From contig JAGCNN010000073.1 in NCBI GenBank assembly GCA_017645925.1, forward strand, positions 1-51,285: a DNA stretch of 51,285 bases, read 5' to 3'. A model generated the notes under the pieces. That model was not told the origin of the DNA. It worked only from the letters and a program-made list of their open reading frames with translations, and made no database searches. Positions within the stretch are counted from its first letter, which is position 1. Every line of letters begins with the position of its first letter. This document shows positions 22,230-36,503 of the stretch, piece after piece. The stretch is from Bacteroidales bacterium (GTDB lineage: Bacteria; Bacteroidota; Bacteroidia; Bacteroidales; ML635J-15). Position numbers and translations under genes: made by a program.

Positions 22230-22256
22230 ACCGATTTTTTGCAGAGGCTGTTTTTG

Positions 22257-25200
22257 ATGAAACAAATATACCTAATAATAATTGTATTTCTTGCAATGGT
22301 GTTGTTGAACAATCCCATGTTCGCACAATACGAATTCATTGAAAACAAGGGACAATGGCACGAAAACGTCAATTTCAAGATGGAGCTAAACGATGGTGCG
22401 CTTTTCATCGAGGACAACGGCTTCACATTCAACATTACAGATATTAAGATGGGACACCACTCCCACGCACACGATGAATATGAATGGCACGACGAAAATG
22501 CTGCCGGTCGCGGACATGCATACAAAGTTGCTTTCAGAAATTCAAAAAAGCCACTTAAGATTTCAAGTTCGGATGCAACAAGCGACTACTGCAACTATTT
22601 CATTGGCAGCGACGAGTCAAAATGGGCTTCGCATGTAATAAAATTCCGAAAGGTAGAATATACAGGCATATACAACAACATCGACATACGCTACTCCTCC
22701 GACAGTCGCGGCATGAAGTACGACTTCATAGTGCATCCGGGAGGCAACTACAAGGACATACAGCTTGAATACATTGGTACAGACGGAATTGAAATATCAG
22801 AAGGCGTACTGATTGCCCATACTACAATACGCGACATAATGGAATATACGCCAAAGGTTTACCAGATTATCAATGGCGACACGATAAACATCAGCTGCGA
22901 ATACATATTGCATAAGAACATTGTAGGATACAAGATTTCAGAAAGTTACGACAAAAACTACGACCTTGTAATTGACCCGTCACTGGTATTCTCGACCTAC
23001 ACTGGTTCCACTGGCGACAACTGGGGTTTTACCGCCACCTTCGACTACAACGACAATGTCTTTTCGGGCGGAATCGTATTTTCAACAGGCTACCCTACTT
23101 CCACGGGTGCATATCAGGTAACATACGCAGGCGGAACTCCGTGGGCTGACAACGCCACAAGCTACCTTGAAGGCTGCGACATCGGTATAATCAAATACAA
23201 CTCAAACGGCACAAGCCGCATATACGCAACCTACCTCGGCGGACACAACGGACAGGAAATGCCTCACAGCCTCGTCGCCACCGAAAGCAACCAGCTAGTA
23301 ATAATGGGCACCACTGGTTCGCCAGACTTCCCTACAACAGCAAATGTCTACGACCGCACTTTCAACGGTGGTACAAGCGTAACCTACGACAACGTTATCG
23401 GATTCCACAACGGAGTTGACATTTTCGTGTCAAAACTATCAGAAGACGGTTCGCAACTTATGGGAAGCACCTACATCGGCGGCACTGGCAACGACGGACT
23501 TAACTTCAAAGCATCTTACACCCTTCCCGACCCCAATACAGGCATTAACTACGTAGAAATGCACGGCAACGACTCGCTCTACTACAACTATGGCGATGGT
23601 GCTCGCGGTGAAGTTGTTGTAAACAGCAAATCATACATTTACGTTGGAACAAATACCTTCTCGTCCGATTTCCCAACAGGAATAAACGAGGGCTTTCAGC
23701 CAACTCACGGCGGCGGTCAGGATGGTGTTGTATTCGCTCTCAGCCCCGACCTTTCGCAACTTGCATGGAGTTCGTACATTGGTGGTTCTCAAGATGATGC
23801 AATATTCAGCGTATCACTTGACATTGATGAAAATGTATTCGTAACAGGCGGAACGACATCCCCAAACTTCCCGACTACCGCAAATGCCTACAACCAGACA
23901 TACAATGGCGGTAGCACCGATGCTTTTGTGGCAAAAGTCGCCCACAACGGAACATTCCTGCTTACCTCGACTTTCTTCGGTTCGCCTGCTTACGACAACG
24001 CCTACTTTGTTCGCACCGACCGCAACAACAAAGTATATATATGCGGACAAACTAAATGCGGAGGAACGGTATTGGTTCAGAATGCAGAATACTATGTGGC
24101 AAATAGCGGTCAGTTTATCACAAAATTCAACAACGACCTTACCAATGTTGAATGGTCAACCCAATTTGGAACAAACACTGGCAAGCCAAATATTTCGATA
24201 ACAGCCTTTGCAGTAGATGTTTGCAACAGGGTTTACCTCTCGGGATGGGGCCGCGAATGGCCGTTCAACTACTACGATGCACAAGCACACTACTATACAT
24301 GGGACCAAGAATTCGGGACAAAGAACATGCAGGTAACAGCAGACGCAATCCAAGACACCACAGACGGAATGGACTTCTATGTGCTTGTACTTAACGAAGA
24401 CGTAAGCGCACTTGAATACGCAACTTTCTTCGGTGAACTGCGATATACAAGCTGTAGCGCATCAGGTCGCGACCACGTTGACGGTGGCACAAGCCGTTTC
24501 GACAAGAAAGGACATATAATCCAGTCGGTATGTGCAAGTTGCGGCGGCTGCCAGATGTTTCCGGCAAGTCCTTCTGATGTATGGTCAACCACAAACAACT
24601 CAACAAACTGCAACAATGCCGTATTCAAGATTAGGATAATAGAAAACCTTGCCGAAGCCAACTTCAACCCTGTGCCTGTAGGCTGCGCACCATATAACGT
24701 GCAGTTTGAAAACACTTCGCAGGGAACATCTTTTCTTTGGAATTTTGGAGATGGGACAACATCAACACAAACAAATCCATCACATACCTACACCAATGGC
24801 GGCACATATACTGTAATGCTAATAGCCAACGACCCAGCCAGTTGCAACCGCACCGACACTATAAGGAGATTCGTTACCGTAGTTTCACCAAGCCCATCCA
24901 CCCTCGATGACATCACAGGCTGCCCAAACGAAAGCGTTATCATAGGTCCCGAAACCGACTATCCGGAAGGCACAACATTCGAATGGATACAAGGAAACGG
25001 AATTAGCAACCCATACGTGCAAAATCCAAGTGTTTCGCCAACACAGACATCAACATACACGCTTGTTGCTCAAGGCATTTGCAACGATACAGTAACACAA
25101 ACCGTCAATGTCATAATCCCCGATGTGGGACTTACAACCTCAAACGACACGACAATATGCCCCGGCGGAACTGCAACCCTGCAAGTTTTCCCGACGGGAA

Positions 25201-27272
25201 ATGCAGTCGCTTGGGAATGGTCTGTTGACCCTAACTTCTCATCAATAATCTCAACAGAACAAACAATTGACGTTTCGCCCGAAAACAGCCTCACCTATTA
25301 TGTAAGAGTTCGTGAATCGGAATGCAACACCTACGCAACAGGTCAAGTTAGGGTTACGATACACAGATTCTACTACAGCCTCACACCTTCGCACATCATC
25401 TGCCCGAATGCACAAGTGCAACTTACCGTAACCAACAATAGCACCGACCAACTATCCTACCAATGGCAAGGTGCAGGAATTATTAGCGGCGGAAATACCA
25501 ATTCACCAACTGTAAGTCCAACATCAGCAACTACATACACAGTTACAATTACCAACCAGATGGGCTGTACAACCACCGACCAAGTTGAGGTAACAATAGA
25601 CAACATAAGCTGCAGCATAGGTTCTACAACAAACAACATTTGCCACGGCTACTGCGAAGGAACGGCAGAAATAATCGCAAGCGGAATCGAACCATATTCC
25701 TATTCGTGGAGCAACGGACAAACAACAGAAACAGCAACTGAACTTTGCGCAGGAAACTATACCATAACCGTTACAGACGGAAATTCCTGCACAACGACAA
25801 ACTCGGTTACAATTTCCGAACCACCAGCCATAACGATTAACTTCACGAACATACAGGAACCAGTCTGCGATGGTGTTGGCTATGGCTCTGCAACAGCAAA
25901 TGTTTCGGGCGGAACTCCCGGATACACATACCAATGGGACATAAACGACTATACCACAGCCACAAACAACGAATGTCTGGTAGGTCTAAACACCATAACG
26001 GTTACAGACCACAATGGCTGTACGGCATCCAGTTCAATAGAAATGCCTGCACCCGGAACACTTACTTCACAGACCGAATCGATAACCCACGTTTCGTGCA
26101 ACGGATTCTGCGACGGTGCGATAAGCATTTCGGCAAGCAACGGCACACCACCATACACCTACAACTGGTCAAATGGTGAACATGGCACAGAAATTCACGG
26201 ACTTTGCGCAGGAAGATACGTAGTAACGGTAATTGATGCCGACAATTGTGTTTCACATCAGTTTGCATACATTACCGAACCTGAAGTTTTACAGACCTAC
26301 ATTCAGGAAACCAATCCAATACTCTGCTTTGGCGGCTTATCAACCATAAACTCAATTTCTTACGGCGGCACAATCCCCTACTCTTTCGTTTGGTCAACAG
26401 GTGAAACAACAAACACTCAAATAGAAGTTACCGCAGGAAACTATTCGATAACCGTAACCGACAACCACGGTTGCACGGCAGATGCTTATATTTCAGTATC
26501 ACAGCCAGAAGAACTGAAACTCACAAGCATACAGGAAAACCAGCTTTGCGACAACAATTGCAACGGAAAAATAGAAACCTCAGTCGCCGGTGGAATTAAT
26601 CCATACAGATACAGATGGTCGAACTCGGAAACAACAAGTTATATAGAAAACCTTTGTAGCAATGATTATTCATTGACTGTTACCGATGCAAATGGATGTC
26701 AACTACATGAAGAATATACAATTAGCAACTTAGGTTACATTCCAGAACTTGATGCAAGAATCAGTTCCAATGTAATATACCGAGGCGAAGATGTAAGACT
26801 TGCCGCAATAACCGAGACTGATGGCACATACGAATGGGACAACGGAAAAATACTTGACAACAACAGAGCAGCCTCTCCGTTGGCACACCCAACAGAAAAC
26901 ACGCTTTTCACAGTAGAGTTCCACGATGGCAACAACTGCATTGCAATTGACACAGTATCGGTGATTGTCAAGGAAGTAATCTGTGGAGATCCCTACATAT
27001 TCGTTCCTAATGCCTTTACGCCAAATGGCGATGGCAACAACGACTTTTTCCGTCCATTCTACCCCGATGCCATTGTAACAGAACTATATTTCGCAGTTTA
27101 CGACCGCTGGGGCTCATTAGTTTACGAAACCGACAATATCCGCGCCGATGGATGGAACGGAACCTACAAAGGCAAGCAACTTGCTCCCGATGTTTATGTT
27201 TTCTGGCTGAAAGCCAAATGTATAAATGGCGAACAATACGAACATCGCGGCAATGTAACATTAATCAGATAA
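22257..27272 (+). CDS. Giant cell-surface protein: SBBP beta-propeller repeats, PKD domain, 5 SprB repeats, type-B T9SS C-terminal domain
   Basis: 1671 aa from ATG 22257 with a signal peptide MKQIYLIIIVFLAMVLLNNPMFAQ. PKD motif is NFGDGTTS...HTYTNGGTYTV. Five units of about 66 aa match C.G.C.G......GG..PY.Y.WSNG......LCAGNY..TVTD.NGC. The CTD motif is VPNAFTPNGDGNNDFF. Confidence 0.9.
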   Translation: MKQIYLIIIVFLAMVLLNNPMFAQYEFIENKGQWHENVNFKMELNDGALFIEDNGFTFNITDIKMGHHSHAHDEYEWHDENAAGRGHAYKVAFRNSKKPLKISSSDATSDYCNYFIGSDESKWASHVIKFRKVEYTGIYNNIDIRYSSDSRGMKYDFIVHPGGNYKDIQLEYIGTDGIEISEGVLIAHTTIRDIMEYTPKVYQIINGDTINISCEYILHKNIVGYKISESYDKNYDLVIDPSLVFSTYTGSTGDNWGFTATFDYNDNVFSGGIVFSTGYPTSTGAYQVTYAGGTPWADNATSYLEGCDIGIIKYNSNGTSRIYATYLGGHNGQEMPHSLVATESNQLVIMGTTGSPDFPTTANVYDRTFNGGTSVTYDNVIGFHNGVDIFVSKLSEDGSQLMGSTYIGGTGNDGLNFKASYTLPDPNTGINYVEMHGNDSLYYNYGDGARGEVVVNSKSYIYVGTNTFSSDFPTGINEGFQPTHGGGQDGVVFALSPDLSQLAWSSYIGGSQDDAIFSVSLDIDENVFVTGGTTSPNFPTTANAYNQTYNGGSTDAFVAKVAHNGTFLLTSTFFGSPAYDNAYFVRTDRNNKVYICGQTKCGGTVLVQNAEYYVANSGQFITKFNNDLTNVEWSTQFGTNTGKPNISITAFAVDVCNRVYLSGWGREWPFNYYDAQAHYYTWDQEFGTKNMQVTADAIQDTTDGMDFYVLVLNEDVSALEYATFFGELRYTSCSASGRDHVDGGTSRFDKKGHIIQSVCASCGGCQMFPASPSDVWSTTNNSTNCNNAVFKIRIIENLAEANFNPVPVGCAPYNVQFENTSQGTSFLWNFGDGTTSTQTNPSHTYTNGGTYTVMLIANDPASCNRTDTIRRFVTVVSPSPSTLDDITGCPNESVIIGPETDYPEGTTFEWIQGNGISNPYVQNPSVSPTQTSTYTLVAQGICNDTVTQTVNVIIPDVGLTTSNDTTICPGGTATLQVFPTGNAVAWEWSVDPNFSSIISTEQTIDVSPENSLTYYVRVRESECNTYATGQVRVTIHRFYYSLTPSHIICPNAQVQLTVTNNSTDQLSYQWQGAGIISGGNTNSPTVSPTSATTYTVTITNQMGCTTTDQVEVTIDNISCSIGSTTNNICHGYCEGTAEIIASGIEPYSYSWSNGQTTETATELCAGNYTITVTDGNSCTTTNSVTISEPPAITINFTNIQEPVCDGVGYGSATANVSGGTPGYTYQWDINDYTTATNNECLVGLNTITVTDHNGCTASSSIEMPAPGTLTSQTESITHVSCNGFCDGAISISASNGTPPYTYNWSNGEHGTEIHGLCAGRYVVTVIDADNCVSHQFAYITEPEVLQTYIQETNPILCFGGLSTINSISYGGTIPYSFVWSTGETTNTQIEVTAGNYSITVTDNHGCTADAYISVSQPEELKLTSIQENQLCDNNCNGKIETSVAGGINPYRYRWSNSETTSYIENLCSNDYSLTVTDANGCQLHEEYTISNLGYIPELDARISSNVIYRGEDVRLAAITETDGTYEWDNGKILDNNRAASPLAHPTENTLFTVEFHDGNNCIAIDTVSVIVKEVICGDPYIFVPNAFTPNGDGNNDFFRPFYPDAIVTELYFAVYDRWGSLVYETDNIRADGWNGTYKGKQLAPDVYVFWLKAKCINGEQYEHRGNVTLIR

Positions 27273-28730: not shown

Positions 28731-28750
28731 CGGTATCCACCAAAACAAAA

Positions 28751-28785
28751 AAGGCTTCGGAAATCCGAAGCCTTTTTATTTTTCT
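28751..28785. terminator. Bidirectional Rho-independent terminator between convergent genes
   Basis: 10-bp stem aaggcttcgg/ccgaagcctt with loop aaat. It is flanked by an A-run upstream and a T-run downstream. Confidence 0.85.
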
Positions 28786-28798
28786 GTAAGACAGCAAA

Positions 28799-29020
28799 TT
28801 ACTTGCATTCAATACCAGTCTTGTTTCCACTATTGTCAGTTACGTATGTATTCATATCCGAACACTTCTTGATGTTGGTGTTGTCCTTATCCAATTCAAC
28901 ATCTTCTGCTGTAGCAACAACGTTACCTGCCACGAAAGTCTTGCATGTACAGGTCTTATTGCATGATGACATTGCGAACAACAAACCAGCTGCTGCCAAA
29001 ATAACTAATAACTTCTTCAT
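28799..29020 (-). CDS. Cys-framework mini-lipoprotein, paralog P1 (73 aa)
   Basis: MKKLLVILAAAGLLFAMSSC lipobox. The mature part has 4 Cys: C-T-C, C-S-D-M-N and a C-terminal E-C-K. Confidence 0.75.
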   Translation of the reverse strand: MKKLLVILAAAGLLFAMSSCNKTCTCKTFVAGNVVATAEDVELDKDNTNIKKCSDMNTYVTDNSGNKTGIECK

Positions 29021-29091
29021 TTCTAATACTTTTTTAAATTTATACTTTTAATATTTTGAAGTGCAAAAGAACAAAAAGCGATGCAAACATC

Positions 29092-29109
29092 ATCTTAATT
29101 TTTTGTTAA
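29092..29109 (-). promoter_or_regulatory. Conserved 18-mer upstream of P1
   Basis: atcttaattttttgttaa is identical to 29533-29550. It lies 72 nt upstream of the P1 ATG, versus 69 nt for P2. Confidence 0.4.
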
Positions 29110-29153
29110 TAAAAATGTCCGCTGTTCCTAAATATGCCCCCATCAGACATGTA

Positions 29154-29181
29154 CAAAAAAAAGCCGCCCAATTGGACGGCT
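29154..29181 (-). terminator. Rho-independent terminator of P2
   Basis: On the minus strand agccgtcc-aatt-gggcggct forms an 8-bp stem (one G-U) followed by 8 U. It lies 26 nt past the P2 stop. Confidence 0.75.
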
Positions 29182-29206
29182 AAGTTTTTTAGGTTTCAGT
29201 AAAGAA

Positions 29207-29464
29207 TTATTCTTCTACGCATTCAAATGTATAGCCTGCAACTTCACCTGCCTTAACAACTCTCTCATAGTAATCATTGCAGTTCTTGTAACCAGCTTCC
29301 TTAAGATCTTTACCTTCTACTGTGAAGTTTGCTGAAGTACCAACGATAGCTTCAACTTCTGGATCTGTGAACTTAGCTGTGCATGTGCAATCCTTTGGTG
29401 TGCATGATGAGAATGCGAAAGCTGCTGCAATAGCAACTACTGATAAAACCAATAACTTTTTCAT
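29207..29464 (-). CDS. Cys-framework mini-lipoprotein, paralog P2 (85 aa)
   Basis: MKKLLVLSVVAIAAAFAFSSC lipobox. The mature part has 4 Cys: D-C-T-C, C-N-D-Y and a C-terminal E-C-VEE. Confidence 0.75.
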   Translation of the reverse strand: MKKLLVLSVVAIAAAFAFSSCTPKDCTCTAKFTDPEVEAIVGTSANFTVEGKDLKEAGYKNCNDYYERVVKAGEVAGYTFECVEE

Positions 29465-29532
29465 TTCTAATAACTTTTAAATTAAACTTAATATTATCTG
29501 GTTGCGAAATAACAAAATAAATCTTAAAACAA

Positions 29533-29550
29533 ATCTTAATTTTTTGTTAA
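29533..29550 (-). promoter_or_regulatory. Conserved 18-mer upstream of P2
   Basis: Identical to 29092-29109. The 11 nt around each start codon (catttctaata on the plus strand) are also identical. Confidence 0.4.
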
Positions 29551-29609
29551 AAAGCATACAAATACTAACAACCTATTGTTATTTGCGTATGATATTTTAC
29601 ATTTATTGC

Positions 29610-29825
29610 CTAATTACAAACAACTTCGCGCGTCACACCGTTTTCTGTTTCAAGAATAATATTCATATCGGAGCATGTCCTATATTCGTCGGTCATGCGC
29701 TCAACAGCCTCTCCAGTCAACACTCCATCCTTATAGGTTTTGCAAGTACATGTTTTCTCACATGACATTAGAAGCAACAATGGCAGGCTTATAGCAAACA
29801 ACAATATCCAGAAACTCTTTTTCAT
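29610..29825 (-). CDS. Cys-framework mini-lipoprotein, paralog P3 (71 aa)
   Basis: MKKSFWILLFAISLPLLLLMSC lipobox. It has KTCTCKT and CSDMN identical to P1. Its ATG is 1 nt after the M43 stop (TAA-T-ATG). Confidence 0.75.
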   Translation of the reverse strand: MKKSFWILLFAISLPLLLLMSCEKTCTCKTYKDGVLTGEAVERMTDEYRTCSDMNIILETENGVTREVVCN

Positions 29826-29826
29826 A

Positions 29827-31935
29827 TTATTCCTTAACGACTTTTATAGTCCTACAACCATTGCCACCATAAACTTTCAGGAAATACACGCCATTAACTT
29901 CATCTGCAACAGCATTGCCAAGGTCAACATGCTCCTCATTGAATTTTCCATCAAAAACCAGCCTGCCCATTACATCGTATATTTCAACAACATATTCTCC
30001 TTCAACATTCTCAACGTCAAGCATCAGATTGTCACGGAAAGGATTTGGATAGACCGACATGCCTACTGTCTCGGCAGACACAAGCGAAGGCAATGTCTGA
30101 GAATAGGTAACGTCATCAATATAAACCGTATTGCCGAACCTGTTTTCGCTCTGGATTATTAGGCGGAAATTTCTTCCTCTCAGTTTTGATGCAGGAATCA
30201 CAAAACTATGCTCTTCCCATTCACTATGTGCCGGAATAAAATTCTTTGGGTCATCCTCAATGGAAGTTATAAGAGCACTTCCCGAAAACGTATGTCCAAT
30301 GCGCATAGTATCGCCACACGATGTGGAATAATAAAAATTCAAAGCATCGGTATATGAATCTTCACTTCTGCCGGCTGCTGCATATTTAAATGAAACTTCC
30401 AATGGAACTGAATCATTATCAATCACTATATTGGGCATATAAAACTTATTCTTCTTAGTTCCCACCCTTGAATTTCTGATTCTAATCGACTTGCCTGTAA
30501 ATCCTGTATTCACCTGCGTCCAGCTTTCCGACCTAGGAATCCACCATTCGTCACCACTTGGAGCATTGGGATTGTAATTTTCAACATAAAAGTCGTTTGC
30601 ACTGTTTCCAGAAATCAACGGGAATGTAGAAGTTTCAAAATTCTCAGTATAAGGAAGCGCATAACCATCTTCCTTGTCATATACGCGCAAAGTATTTTCC
30701 TTTGTCAAAGTATTGCCATCCACACTGTTTTCCACATACAGTTCCACATTGAACCTTCCACCTTCATCGTAGGTGACAGTTGGATTTTCCTCCATAGAAG
30801 TAGCAGGCTCTCCCCCATCAAAACTCCACAACCTATAATCTACTGATGTCGTATTATAAGTATGGTCGTTATAAGTAATCGTTGCGCCATTGCATATCAT
30901 CTGTTTGCTTTGGCTGAAATCAGCAATTGGACTGCACTCAACCTCAATGTAATCATCGTCGGTGCCGGTTGCAATCCTATTTTCTGCTGTACACAAATTA
31001 TTTCTGTTCGATACATCAGAATTAAGCGTAGCCCTCATTACCGCCGCCTGACCATTGGTAAACATTCGGTAGCAATAACTATAGTCCATGAAATTCTGCA
31101 CATTGTCAAGACTTCCGCATGTAACATCATTCAATACGCACGAAGTATGACCGATAGTGTTAGGCGTATCATCAATTCCATCGTCAATATCGCAGTTGTC
31201 GGCCATGCCCGGCTCGTTTGTACTTCCCCACGGATGCGGCAAGTTAAGATAATGCCCTGCTTCATGTGTCAACGCCATGCTTATATAATCGTAAAGCAAT
31301 ATTATGCCATCGCCGCCTTCGGGAGCTGTTCCCGGATAGTACGAATAACCGGCAACACCGCTTTCGCTCATCGCCTTTACCGTCCAAATATTCAAGTACT
31401 TGGAATTATCCCAGCTACCAGCAATCTCCTTGGTTCTCTCGTCGCCACTATTAGTTGCCGAAGAATAAGTACGTGTAACACCCATTGTGCAGTTTCCGTC
31501 CGGATCTTTATGCGCAAGACGGAACTCAATCTTCGTATCGGCAGCTATCGGCTTGAACTCCTCCTTTATAGAAGCTGTATCAGAACGCATCTTACGGTAA
31601 TCCTTGTTCATCTGCTCTATTGCAGCCTCAATTGCCGCGTATGAAATGTTCTCGTTTCCATACTGGTGCACAACATGGAAAACTACAGGGATAACATAAA
31701 CTTCATCGTCATCGCTCTTGGGATTCTGCCTAATGTACTCACGAACGAAATCGTTAAGCTTAGCCCTGTTCAATGCCACTTGCGGATTATGCAAGACAAT
31801 TTGATTATATACGGAATCAGTTCCACAATGCAACCAACCGTCCTCATGCTCCTGCGCCATCGAAAACAATGGCAAAAGAAACATTATACCTATTAATAAT
31901 ATATTTACAATCTTCATAAGAAAAAATTTTTGCAA
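29827..31935 (-). CDS. M43 (pappalysin/cytophagalysin-type) zinc metalloprotease with type-A T9SS C-terminal domain
   Basis: 702 aa with a signal peptide. IPVVFHVV lies at the start of the catalytic domain and the zinc site is THEAGHYLNLPHPW. The CTD is VYPNPFRDNLMLDV...GVYFLKVYGGNGCRTIKVVKE. Confidence 0.9.
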   Translation of the reverse strand: MQKFFLMKIVNILLIGIMFLLPLFSMAQEHEDGWLHCGTDSVYNQIVLHNPQVALNRAKLNDFVREYIRQNPKSDDDEVYVIPVVFHVVHQYGNENISYAAIEAAIEQMNKDYRKMRSDTASIKEEFKPIAADTKIEFRLAHKDPDGNCTMGVTRTYSSATNSGDERTKEIAGSWDNSKYLNIWTVKAMSESGVAGYSYYPGTAPEGGDGIILLYDYISMALTHEAGHYLNLPHPWGSTNEPGMADNCDIDDGIDDTPNTIGHTSCVLNDVTCGSLDNVQNFMDYSYCYRMFTNGQAAVMRATLNSDVSNRNNLCTAENRIATGTDDDYIEVECSPIADFSQSKQMICNGATITYNDHTYNTTSVDYRLWSFDGGEPATSMEENPTVTYDEGGRFNVELYVENSVDGNTLTKENTLRVYDKEDGYALPYTENFETSTFPLISGNSANDFYVENYNPNAPSGDEWWIPRSESWTQVNTGFTGKSIRIRNSRVGTKKNKFYMPNIVIDNDSVPLEVSFKYAAAGRSEDSYTDALNFYYSTSCGDTMRIGHTFSGSALITSIEDDPKNFIPAHSEWEEHSFVIPASKLRGRNFRLIIQSENRFGNTVYIDDVTYSQTLPSLVSAETVGMSVYPNPFRDNLMLDVENVEGEYVVEIYDVMGRLVFDGKFNEEHVDLGNAVADEVNGVYFLKVYGGNGCRTIKVVKE

Positions 31936-34287: not shown

Positions 34288-34398
34288 TAATAAGGATATT
34301 ACAATAAAATTTGCATAAACAAACAAGCCTTGTTAATAAAATCAGCGATAAAAAGCGAAAAAAAAAGAAATCAAAAATTGTAGTTAAAAAAAATTTAA

Positions 34399-34406
34399 TA
34401 CCTTTG
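34399..34406 (+). promoter_or_regulatory. -7 box TACCTTTG(C) for the C10 peptidase gene
   Basis: Exact match, 34 nt upstream of ATG 34440. Confidence 0.5.
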
Positions 34407-34439
34407 CATCTATTATTTAAGACACAAAATAGTTTTTGT

Positions 34440-36503
34440 ATGAAAAGATTTAGTTTAGTGATAGTCATCTTGTTAGCAGCGCAATTCATATTCGCGCAGA
34501 ATGCTTCAACAACAGTTTCTAACAAGGAAGCGATGACATACGGATTGAACTACATGAAGTCACAATTCCCGACAAGAGCAAATTTGTCCGTAAGTTCCTA
34601 CGAACTTTTGAAGTCGGAAAACACTGGAAAAGACTGCTACCATGTATTCAACTTTGAAGAAGGCGGTTTCGTAATCGTATGTGCTGATTTAAGAGGTATT
34701 CCAATCCTCGGATATTCTGATGAAGGCAGTTTCGATTTTGAAAACGGTGCTCCTGCTACTCAGGAATGGATTAAGCATTATATGCAACAGCTCGATGTAA
34801 TTGAAGCAAAAAACATTGCTGTATCTGAAAAAAATATTGCTGCTTGGAATCCAACAGCAAAGCGTTCTATTGTCCGCGGTGTTAATGCTTTGGTACAAAC
34901 CAAATGGAATCAGAGCTATCCTTACAACATGCTTTGCCCGGAACATTCGCAGGGTGATCACGGACATACATATACAGGATGTGTTGCAACTGCAATGGCT
35001 CAAGTTATGAAATATTGGAATTACCCACAGCATGGTGATGGAAAATTAACTTATTTCTGGGGACAATGGGATACCATTAATTTATCAGAAACAACATACG
35101 ACTGGGAGAATATGCCAAACTTCTATTCATCATTTGGTGCTAACGCATGGAACGATGCACAAAAGCAAGCTGTTGCTACATTGATGTTCCATTGCGGTGT
35201 ATCCATCTACATGGACTATGGATATGATGGTTCAGGAACTCAGACTTACTATGTTGCAGATGCTTTGAGAAACAACTTCAAATATAGAAATGGTGTAAAC
35301 TATAAATACAGAGACAATGGAGGTACTTCAGATGACTCATTTGAACACTACTACGAGAATGACACTATTTGGAGCAGAATGTTAATCGAAGACCTTGACT
35401 TGCACCGTCCACTTATATATAGTGGACACCCATCATCTGGCGCAGGTCACGCTTGGGTTTGCGATGGTTACAGAACAAACAGCGACGGTACTACCGAATT
35501 CCACATGAACTGGGGCTGGGGTGGTGCTAACGATGGTTACTACACAATCGACAACCTCAACACACATTCAGGTCCTGGTGATGATGGCAGCAACAATTTC
35601 GTTTACGGACAGTGCGTAATATTCAATATCGCTGTTCCTGATTTGGAAGCAGCTCCTTACTGCATGAACGACCAGACAAATGTTTATGAAGAAGAACACT
35701 GGAACATTAACGATGGTAGCTACTCAAACTTCTACAAGAAGAACAGCAACTGCGACTGGGTTATCAAGATTAAAGACTACGAAACCGATACAGTTCTTTA
35801 CTACTTCAATTATTTTGAATTAGAAGCAGGTGATGAAGTAAAAATTTATGCAGGCGAAGATGCTAACGGACAATTGCTATACACTTTCTATGAAGGCAAC
35901 GAACCAGTAGATACAGTTAAGCACGTTGGCACACCTCTTTACATTCAATTCACTACAGACTCTGACGACCAAGCTAGAGGTTGGGAATTGCACTACGAAG
36001 CAATGAGATACCCGTTTACAATCACAACGACAACCGTTGGTAATGGTGGAAGCGTAAATCCAGACGGCGTTAGACCAGTAATGAAGAATTCTACTTTGAC
36101 AGTAACTATGACTCCAACTGAGGGCAACCATGTAAGCGAGTTCACTATTGATGGCGTTTTGACAATAAAGGGCGCAGGCAAGAGCGAAGAAATTGCATAC
36201 ACCTTTACAAATATTAAGTCAAACCACACAGTCGAAGTTAAGTTTGAACCAGTATCCGTTGACGAAGAAAGCATGAATGCAATTTCAGTTTTCCCGAATC
36301 CTAACAATGGTAAGTTCAGCCTCACTGTAGATGAAAATGCTGATTCCTACATACTTTACGACATTAATGGTCGTGTATTGGAAGAAAAGGCTATAAATGG
36401 ACAAACAAATGTTGATTTTGACATGAACGTTTCGGCTGGAACATACTTCATAAAGGTAATCGCCAACGATACCGTTTCTGTAAAGAAGATTATAGTTGAA
36501 TAA
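34440..36503 (+). CDS. C10 (streptopain/SpeB-like) cysteine peptidase with type-A T9SS CTD
   Basis: Start at ATG 34440 (MKRFSLVIVILLAAQFIFAQ). Catalytic Cys context is YTGCVATAMAQVMKYW and His context is GHAWVCDGY. A CUB-like middle region precedes the CTD VFPNPNNGKFSLTV...GTYFIKVIANDTVSVKKIIVE. Confidence 0.9.
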   Translation: MKRFSLVIVILLAAQFIFAQNASTTVSNKEAMTYGLNYMKSQFPTRANLSVSSYELLKSENTGKDCYHVFNFEEGGFVIVCADLRGIPILGYSDEGSFDFENGAPATQEWIKHYMQQLDVIEAKNIAVSEKNIAAWNPTAKRSIVRGVNALVQTKWNQSYPYNMLCPEHSQGDHGHTYTGCVATAMAQVMKYWNYPQHGDGKLTYFWGQWDTINLSETTYDWENMPNFYSSFGANAWNDAQKQAVATLMFHCGVSIYMDYGYDGSGTQTYYVADALRNNFKYRNGVNYKYRDNGGTSDDSFEHYYENDTIWSRMLIEDLDLHRPLIYSGHPSSGAGHAWVCDGYRTNSDGTTEFHMNWGWGGANDGYYTIDNLNTHSGPGDDGSNNFVYGQCVIFNIAVPDLEAAPYCMNDQTNVYEEEHWNINDGSYSNFYKKNSNCDWVIKIKDYETDTVLYYFNYFELEAGDEVKIYAGEDANGQLLYTFYEGNEPVDTVKHVGTPLYIQFTTDSDDQARGWELHYEAMRYPFTITTTTVGNGGSVNPDGVRPVMKNSTLTVTMTPTEGNHVSEFTIDGVLTIKGAGKSEEIAYTFTNIKSNHTVEVKFEPVSVDEESMNAISVFPNPNNGKFSLTVDENADSYILYDINGRVLEEKAINGQTNVDFDMNVSAGTYFIKVIANDTVSVKKIIVE

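Follow-up and report, generated by a model that had tools for sequence, protein, structure and literature searches.

The closest described counterparts of the genes considered here are the potempins PotA to PotE of Tannerella forsythia, which pair with KLIKK peptidases, PotD being the partner of the M43 enzyme mirolysin (PMC9890683). Potempins are 98 to 132 residues long and adopt a five-stranded oligonucleotide/oligosaccharide-binding (OB) fold or an up-and-down β-barrel of eight strands, their genes lie upstream of and are co-transcribed with that of the cognate peptidase, and inhibition has been shown experimentally (PMC9890683). We analyzed a 51,285-nucleotide (nt) stretch of DNA from a Bacteroidales bacterium (assembly GCA_017645925.1, contig JAGCNN010000073.1, hereafter the window), wherein four consecutive minus-strand open reading frames (ORFs) across 28.7–31.9 kb encode an M43 metalloprotease with a sorting domain for the type IX secretion system (T9SS), followed by three mini-lipoproteins called P3, P2 and P1. 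An initial inspection of the letters and ORFs, which we call the sequence-only reading, had proposed that this array is a protease/inhibitor module. At the scale of the family, and specifically for P1, our neighborhood census speaks against that proposal. We regard it as somewhat probable, if by no means secure, that the three small genes belong to a general envelope family of four-cysteine (Cys4) lipoproteins and that the array was built by local tandem duplication rather than as a three-gene inhibitor module.

The elements of the array, in the order in which the minus strand is read, are listed below with lengths in amino acids (aa).

29827..31917, minus strand: M43 (pappalysin-family) zinc metalloprotease, 696 aa from ATG
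29610..29825, minus strand: P3, Cys4 mini-lipoprotein of the P3 subtype, 71 aa, with no promoter box of its own
29533..29550, minus strand: 18-mer TTAACAAAAAATTAAGAT, copy 1, 69–86 nt 5' of the P2 ATG
29513..29520, minus strand: near-match to the -7 box (TAnnTTTG), TTATTTTG, 56 nt 5' of the P2 ATG
29207..29464, minus strand: P2, Cys4 mini-lipoprotein of the P2 subtype, 85 aa, SSCTPKDCxC...GYKNCxDYY...ECVEE
29162..29181, minus strand: intrinsic terminator-like hairpin and T-run after P2
29092..29109, minus strand: 18-mer TTAACAAAAAATTAAGAT, copy 2, 72–89 nt 5' of the P1 ATG
29064..29071, minus strand: near-match to the -7 box, TTCTTTTG, 51 nt 5' of the P1 ATG
28799..29020, minus strand: P1, of the widespread P1 type, 73 aa, SCNKTCTCKT[FY]...KKCSDMN...GxEC
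28748..28777: bidirectional terminator with a 13-bp stem, common to P1 and a convergent Na+:alanine symporter gene

The M43 gene stops with TAA at 29829–29827, the single base 29826 follows, and the ATG of P3 begins at 29825, such that the 1-nt gap reported earlier (TAA-t-ATG) reads as it had been given. The bidirectional terminator at the end of the array likewise exists, but its position shifts from 28751–28785 to 28748–28777. P1, P2 and P3 each have exactly five cysteine (Cys) residues, one in the lipobox (MSSC in P1, FSSC in P2 and LMSC in P3) and four in the mature part, and these counts agree with the signal peptidase II type of signal and the four further Cys that had been described. 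The claim that the three are paralogs holds well for P1 and P3, which are 39% identical (E=1e-11), and less securely for P2, of which pairwise BLAST aligns no more than the signal peptide and the CxC motif (E=0.14). A profile-profile comparison of the mature P2-type and P1-type sequences gives E=2.4e-4 at a probability of 44%, the hidden Markov model (HMM) of the family detects P2, and the Cys framework of P2 is the same as that of P1 and P3. All three genes are under purifying selection, with nonsynonymous to synonymous rate ratios (dN/dS) against orthologs in related contigs of 0.03–0.23 for P1, 0.19 for P3 and 0.22–0.34 for P2. The notion that they are not real genes is ruled out by these ratios, by conservation, and by the enrichment of promoters and terminators. 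Another ORF of 84 aa at 35877–36131 on the minus strand, which matches a lipoprotein pattern, lies on the opposite strand inside a C10 protease gene and was rejected as a family member.

The relatives of these proteins are numerous. Among 5.8 billion proteins, a word-seeded profile search found 143 homologs of 59–113 aa, all of them Bacteroidales 'hypothetical proteins' without a Pfam domain. When 1.84 billion cluster representatives were searched exhaustively with the family HMM, 666 passed E<=1e-3, of which 85 also passed E<=1e-10. These representatives are all standalone proteins of 55–131 aa, apart from one spurious match of 1205 aa (P0287), which is a repetitive, unrelated sequence that we do not accept as a member. 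An alignment of 101 members shows no variation at the S-C of the lipobox or at the four Cys of the mature part, and almost none at the K two residues past the lipid Cys. We define the family by a standalone precursor of 60–90 aa in which a lipobox Cys is followed by x-K-x-C-x-C, by a third Cys approximately 25–35 residues on, and by a fourth Cys no more than 12 residues from the C-terminus. This strict Cys pattern is found in 134 of 148 representatives, it is invariant in the alignments A2, A4 and A9, and it is present in all of P1, P2 and P3.

No scan of P1–P3 against Pfam, NCBIfam, PADLOC or PHROGs produced a match above cut-off, and the weak library matches that were seen (Ecm33, PG1828, Cor and LP_plasma) fall on the signal peptide. 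For the PG1828 family (NF050142), P2 scores 20.6 bits over residues 1–41, which are mostly signal peptide, against a cut-off of 50, and neither P1 nor P3 matches. The expectation that P1–P3 form a new family, without a Pfam or NCBIfam model, is thus borne out, and we found no prior description of such a Cys4 lipoprotein family in the literature. The 45 P1-type loci of our genome scan all come from gut or rumen Bacteroidales metagenome-assembled genomes (MAGs), with tandem arrays of two or three copies at 13 of them. Judged by their sequences, P1, P2 and P3 are members of a large, uncharacterized family of Cys4 lipoproteins of gut and rumen Bacteroidales whose mature part is approximately 50 residues long.

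Two observations concern how members of the family are filed in databases. Entries P0019, P0059, P0115 and P0119 carry an N-terminal extension, MKFLFVYVVF[IV]C.F.QLIYLFNLKFNK, before the real MKK start. It is the translation of a conserved promoter and 5' leader that is often mis-called as coding, and the upstream DNA is therefore conserved between different family members. Contigs L013 and L015, from Oscillospiraceae MAGs, and L043, from a Candidatus Nanosyncoccus MAG, carry typical Bacteroidales mini-lipoprotein loci, and their filing outside the Bacteroidota probably reflects binning errors in the source assemblies.

If the family served to restrain proteases, its genes should usually adjoin those of peptidases, as the sequence-only reading supposed. 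P1-type patterns, run against a single genome of each species, gave 45 loci, and a scan of metagenomes with the same patterns added 37 more. An M43 homolog lies within 6 kb at two of the 45 genome loci (L001, 72% identical to the M43 of the window, and L002, 68%) and at four of the 37 metagenome loci (64–81% identical). M43 is therefore nearby at only 6 of 82 loci, and all six belong to one clade. The commonest neighbor cluster occurs at no more than nine of the 45 genome loci, which fall into approximately 20 gene contexts by our own grouping. Among 81 immediate neighbors scanned with Pfam, Reg_prop and DsbD were each found in seven, radical SAM/RimO in five, diadenylate cyclase (DAC) and MauE each in four, GcvP in three and Peptidase_M43 in one; the 25 commonest families include none of peptidases. 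A protein with a T9SS_plug_1st domain is the immediate neighbor at two loci (L025:3941-5218 and L031:6334-7608), which, with the M43 cargo, hints at a connection to the T9SS, with too few independent events for us to judge.

Within the M43-bearing clade, the locus is a syntenic block in which the order UvrB, M43 and its array, then aminotransferase, DUF7935 and ABC genes, recurs wherever the contig is long enough. The relatives of the window carry a fourth subtype of 81 aa, T81, which has no copy in the window. Array content varies from locus to locus (P3-P2-P1 in the window, T81-P1-P2 in L001 and P3-T81-T75-P1 in L047), as would be expected if genes had been duplicated and lost locally. The spacing of P3 to T81 is -10 to +16 nt, and the later genes of the arrays are 89–268 nt apart. 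Some P3-type genes (L046:1862-2071 and relatives, P0038) start with GTG 4 nt past the M43 stop, an arrangement consistent with translational coupling and not with independent initiation.

Promoters divide the array further. TAnnTTTG is the -7 consensus of Bacteroidetes, and we counted exact copies of it 10–90 nt upstream of each gene, with expectations derived from shuffled sequences. The motif precedes 69 of 105 generic family genes (5.3 expected) and six of seven P2-type genes (1.4 expected), but none of four P3-type genes (0.1 expected) and none of 14 T81-type genes (0.6 expected). In addition, the 18-mer TTAACAAAAAATTAAGAT occurs in the window only upstream of P1 and P2 (0.02 expected), and its core is found again in L002, L047 and L064, where it likewise precedes P1-type genes. 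The 18-mer could belong to the promoter as an upstream element, or serve as the site of a regulator, and have been duplicated together with the genes. Genes of the P3 and T81 types have no -7 box and abut the M43 stop or the preceding family gene, and P3 therefore probably both shares the M43 transcript and is translationally coupled to that gene. P1 and P2 appear to be autonomous transcription units, since they have their own -7-like boxes, terminators and the duplicated 18-mer. Together, the family-wide census and the promoter census thus set P3, as an operonic copy, apart from P1 and P2, which are autonomous.

What the small proteins have in common is their cysteines. AlphaFold2 predicts one topology for P1 and P3, strand-strand-short helix-strand-strand, with predicted local distance difference test (pLDDT) values of 82–93 for the mature domain. 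The CxC pair lies on strand 1, a third Cys at the start of the helix, and the fourth on the last strand. Since both Cys of the CxC pair are on one strand, they would face the same side, and we infer from these models that the four Cys hold the mini-domain together, through either two disulfides or a four-Cys metal site. Foldseek compared the P1 model with PDB and BFVD and the P3 model with PDB, and the best E values were 0.48–1.1. Profile and structure searches had been proposed as a check on the inhibitor idea, and they recovered members of the family but no match to a known fold or inhibitor.

Surface-exposed lipoproteins of the Bacteroidota bear the export signal K-(D/E)2 or Q-A-(D/E)2 (PMC5080379). 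Neither form follows the lipid Cys of P1–P3, where the residues are CNKTC in P1, CTPKDC in P2 and CEKTC in P3, and the earlier statement that no acidic stretch is present there was correct. Across the family, residue +3 is K, followed by x-C. That P1–P3 have no K-(D/E)2 signal suggests that they remain anchored to a membrane on its periplasmic face, and the Cys4 domain, which begins three residues past the lipid anchor, would therefore sit at the membrane surface.

Thiol chemistry also recurs among the neighboring genes. Thiol-redox membrane proteins, either DsbD or a MauE fusion, are the immediate neighbors at 11 of 43 genome loci. A DsbD-family protein (DsbD_N, DsbD_TM, thioredoxin) is the divergent upstream neighbor at seven of these 43 (L004, L005, L014, L017, L021, L030 and L033, for example L017:1394-3463) and at seven of 37 metagenome loci (L073, L074, L076, L079, L085, L088 and L091), in a block that consists of DsbD, the lipoprotein, a Reg_prop propeller protein and an unknown 425-aa protein. 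A MauE-domain protein is encoded directly downstream on the same strand at four genome loci, with three upstream contexts among them, and MauE is found at three of 37 metagenome loci. The MauE fusion genes (L003:6776-7711, L006:6421-7416, L008:6279-7214, L034:6421-7374 and L066:5775-6710) share an invariant C-x-C-F/M-G and a C-terminal CxxC (CEFC, CGYC, CQYC or CKYC), and their presence in three upstream contexts suggests a dedicated thiol-oxidoreductase partner of the Cys4 family. We treat these redox neighbors as a lead towards a family function that centers on cysteines.

The M43 protein itself is well described by the earlier account of its HEAGHYLNLPH site and type-A T9SS sorting domain, with Peptidase_M43 and TIGR04183 both above cut-off. 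The match to Pfam Peptidase_M43 has E=1.2e-17 (PF05572, 64.7 bits against a cut-off of 23), that to the type-A sorting domain TIGR04183 of NCBIfam has E=1.1e-11 (44.5 bits against 23), Por_Secre_tail (PF18962) scores 36.4 bits against 27, PKD is also matched, and a match to choice-of-anchor-J is weak. The order of domains is a signal peptide, a pro-segment with HCG, the catalytic domain, PKD, a choice-of-anchor-J-like region and the type-A T9SS C-terminal domain. In full, the ORF opens at a first TTG at 31935 (29827..31935, minus strand, 702 aa), but the ATG at 31917 is likely the true start because orthologs align only from residue 7. The zinc motif is THEAGHYLNLPH. Its HEAGHYLNLPH (HExxHxxNxxH) aligns with HEIGHWLNLYH of ulilysin, the Met-turn YCYRMFT aligns with KCMVMFT, and E values against ulilysin and mirolysin range from 1e-37 to 3e-32. 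The N-terminal HCGT aligns with RCGA of zymogen ulilysin (8cd8). In unicellular pappalysins, a Cys-Gly motif of the pro-segment mediates latency by a cysteine switch (PMC6949598, PMC8259862), and by analogy the HCG motif would give this M43 an intrinsic latency during transit through the periplasm.

The explanation that we favor, a general envelope family with local duplication at this site, would run as follows. A widespread P1-type gene would have happened to lie 3' of M43 in one lineage and then have been duplicated, and the copies nearest M43 would have lost their promoters, leaving only P3, within the window, to ride on the M43 transcript. P1 and P2, which are of, or derive from, a type that elsewhere resides between unrelated housekeeping genes, are probably strongly expressed. 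The ancestral role of the family would be a general envelope function centered on the cysteines, and any role specific to M43 would be a secondary acquisition confined to the P3 and T81 subtypes.

Some observations weigh against this account. The P3, P2 and T81 types have been traced only to the M43 syntenic block. The first family gene is found 1–35 nt past the M43 stop in every one of the approximately 22 clade contigs that show the junction, and this junction is kept even in the most divergent contig, in which the C-terminal region of M43 is 52% identical. An invariant junction and locus-restricted subtypes are also what a functional partnership with M43 would be expected to produce. A narrowed inhibitor hypothesis, which we consider unlikely, sees in P3 (or T81 in relatives) a periplasmic partner of M43, anchored in the membrane and co-translated with the protease, that would bind M43 as an inhibitor or a holdase until T9SS export; P1 and P2 might be spare or related copies. 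The TAA-t-ATG junction, and the fact that a family gene of the P3 or T81 type always follows M43 this closely in clade contigs, fit such a partner, but these contigs come from a narrow clade and synteny extends over the entire block from UvrB to ABC, so conserved adjacency alone tells little and the linkage may be inherited rather than selected; indeed, the junction is conserved no more strongly than the flanking UvrB and aminotransferase genes. Subtypes known from the M43 locus only would fit as well, but the confinement of P3, T81 and P2 to one locus is expected of locally born paralogs, because copies that arise by local duplication would be local anyway. None of the 18 genes of the P3 and T81 types has a promoter box of its own, and P3 is under purifying selection; P3 is nevertheless missing at the M43 loci L001, L056 and L064, T81 is missing in the window, and the family at large is unlinked to peptidases. 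The three M43 homologs from beyond the clade that we inspected (<=58% identity) lack a neighboring family gene. The potempins, co-transcribed with T9SS proteases that include an M43 enzyme, offer a precedent (PMC9890683), but their gene order is the opposite, P1–P3 resemble no known inhibitor in fold or sequence, and the M43 protease has an intrinsic Cys-Gly switch motif. In its most developed form, the hypothesis would make P3 and T81 Cys-clamped partners, of approximately 50 residues, of T9SS pappalysins, neofunctionalized from a general Cys4 envelope family tied to the MauE-thioredoxin and DsbD thiol-redox proteins in strictly anaerobic Bacteroidales. We find this version decidedly unlikely; if true, it would represent the smallest known scaffold of a lipoprotein protease inhibitor, and the birth of an inhibitor by tandem duplication.

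Two other hypotheses address the function of the family rather than its link to M43. One is that the lipoprotein is a redox client whose CxC...C...C tetrad is oxidized, reduced or loaded with metal by the neighboring DsbD or MauE plus thioredoxin-like proteins, in which case it would be a redox relay or redox buffer, or else bind Cu or Zn through its thiols, at the membrane surface. We think this rather unlikely as formulated. The four Cys are invariant family-wide, and DsbD and MauE genes adjoin family members at several loci; the DsbD cases, however, form one synteny block and possibly one evolutionary event. The MauE loci do have three different upstream contexts, but the redox association rests on the DsbD block and those three contexts, and the 'thioredoxin-like' label of the MauE C-terminal part comes from its CxxC and our own reading, with no Pfam hit. 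Approximately 70% of loci have no redox neighbor, neither a DsbD nor a MauE gene lies within the 51-kb window, and neither a thioredoxin-like nor another known redox fold was detected in the lipoprotein. The other hypothesis, superinfection exclusion in the manner of T5 Llp or Cor, is very improbable in our estimation. It would have the lipoproteins bind an outer-membrane transporter from the inside and the arrays reflect an arms race, and it draws on likenesses in size, lipidation and multi-copy diversification. The only profile match in PDB is to T5 Llp (8a60_B, E=0.08) and there are weak PHROG matches to Cor (E approximately 0.1), but these are not significant, fall on the signal peptide and misalign the lipobox, and we reject homology to Llp on those grounds. 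There is also no match in PADLOC and no fold match in BFVD, the flanks consist of housekeeping genes and not of a prophage, and P1-type genes are under strong purifying, not diversifying, selection.

For the general envelope family that we favor, the value of these findings is descriptive. Adjacency that is seen in a single narrow clade carries little evidential weight, and the family, its predicted fold and its redox neighbors constitute new descriptive biology, with nothing yet that is surprising or that resolves an open question. The family is nonetheless a large one of rumen and gut Bacteroidales, with hundreds of clusters at 50% identity, and it merits a family definition of its own. Its possible link to thiol-redox proteins of the MauE and DsbD types is set in organisms that are thought to be poor in periplasmic disulfide chemistry; anaerobic Bacteroides are not known to have DsbA or DsbB, so the choice between disulfides and a metal site is not a trivial one.

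Two other genes of the window encode T9SS cargo. Beside UvrB, at 34311-36503 on the plus strand, is a second T9SS protease, with Peptidase_C10 (SpeB-like), CUB and Por_Secre_tail domains. Its N-terminal pro-domain is of the Inhibitor_I69 (Spi) type, such that the inhibitor is built into the protease. At 22239-27272 on the plus strand, two genes away from the array, a protein of 1677 aa combines DUF7948, PKD and Ig_7 domains and SprB repeats with a CHU_C (type-B) T9SS signal, and appears to be a large, adhesin-like surface cargo.

How, then, does the array compare with described systems? T5 Llp (8a60) is also a very small lipoprotein, but the family described here occupies a chromosomal housekeeping context. 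MauE and MauD are needed to mature MauA, the disulfide-rich subunit of methylamine dehydrogenase, and DoxX-type proteins accompany Cys-rich peptides that bind copper. The loci L003, L006, L008 and L034 resemble the former arrangement in that the gene of a small, Cys-rich exported protein adjoins that of a MauE protein with a thioredoxin-like CxxC module; the lipoprotein is not homologous to MauA, and the association is seen at a minority of loci, not including the window. Tissue inhibitors of metalloproteinases (TIMPs), which inhibit metzincins, begin with CTCVPP, wherein two Cys are disulfide-bonded to distal Cys. The free α-amino group of Cys1 chelates zinc, and the protein is an OB barrel of approximately 125 residues. 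A TIMP-like mechanism for the CTC of our proteins was rejected, in that this motif lies four residues past an acylated N-terminal Cys and the fold differs, and we regard the likeness as coincidence.

Among proteases, the unicellular pappalysins mirolysin and ulilysin have a Cys-Gly pro-segment like the HCG of this M43. Their cysteine switch is intramolecular, which lowers but does not abolish the need for a separate inhibitor, as mirolysin has both. The pairs Spi/SpeB and Bfi/Bfp embody the same concept of a cognate inhibitor beside a secreted protease, but the protease there is of class C10, and no match to Inhibitor_I69 (PF13734) was found in P1–P3 at E<=1. Compared with potempins, P1–P3 all lie 3' of M43, with only P3 plausibly co-transcribed, and their mature parts of approximately 50–65 aa are predicted to have four strands and a short helix, with four Cys. 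Neither sequence nor fold matches, and most members of the family have no peptidase nearby. What P3 does share with potempins is that they are lipobox lipoproteins encoded next to a T9SS protease, and one potempin target is likewise an M43 pappalysin. Should a partnership of P3 or T81 with M43 prove true, the potempin principle would reach another order-level lineage, with another gene order and a much smaller scaffold.

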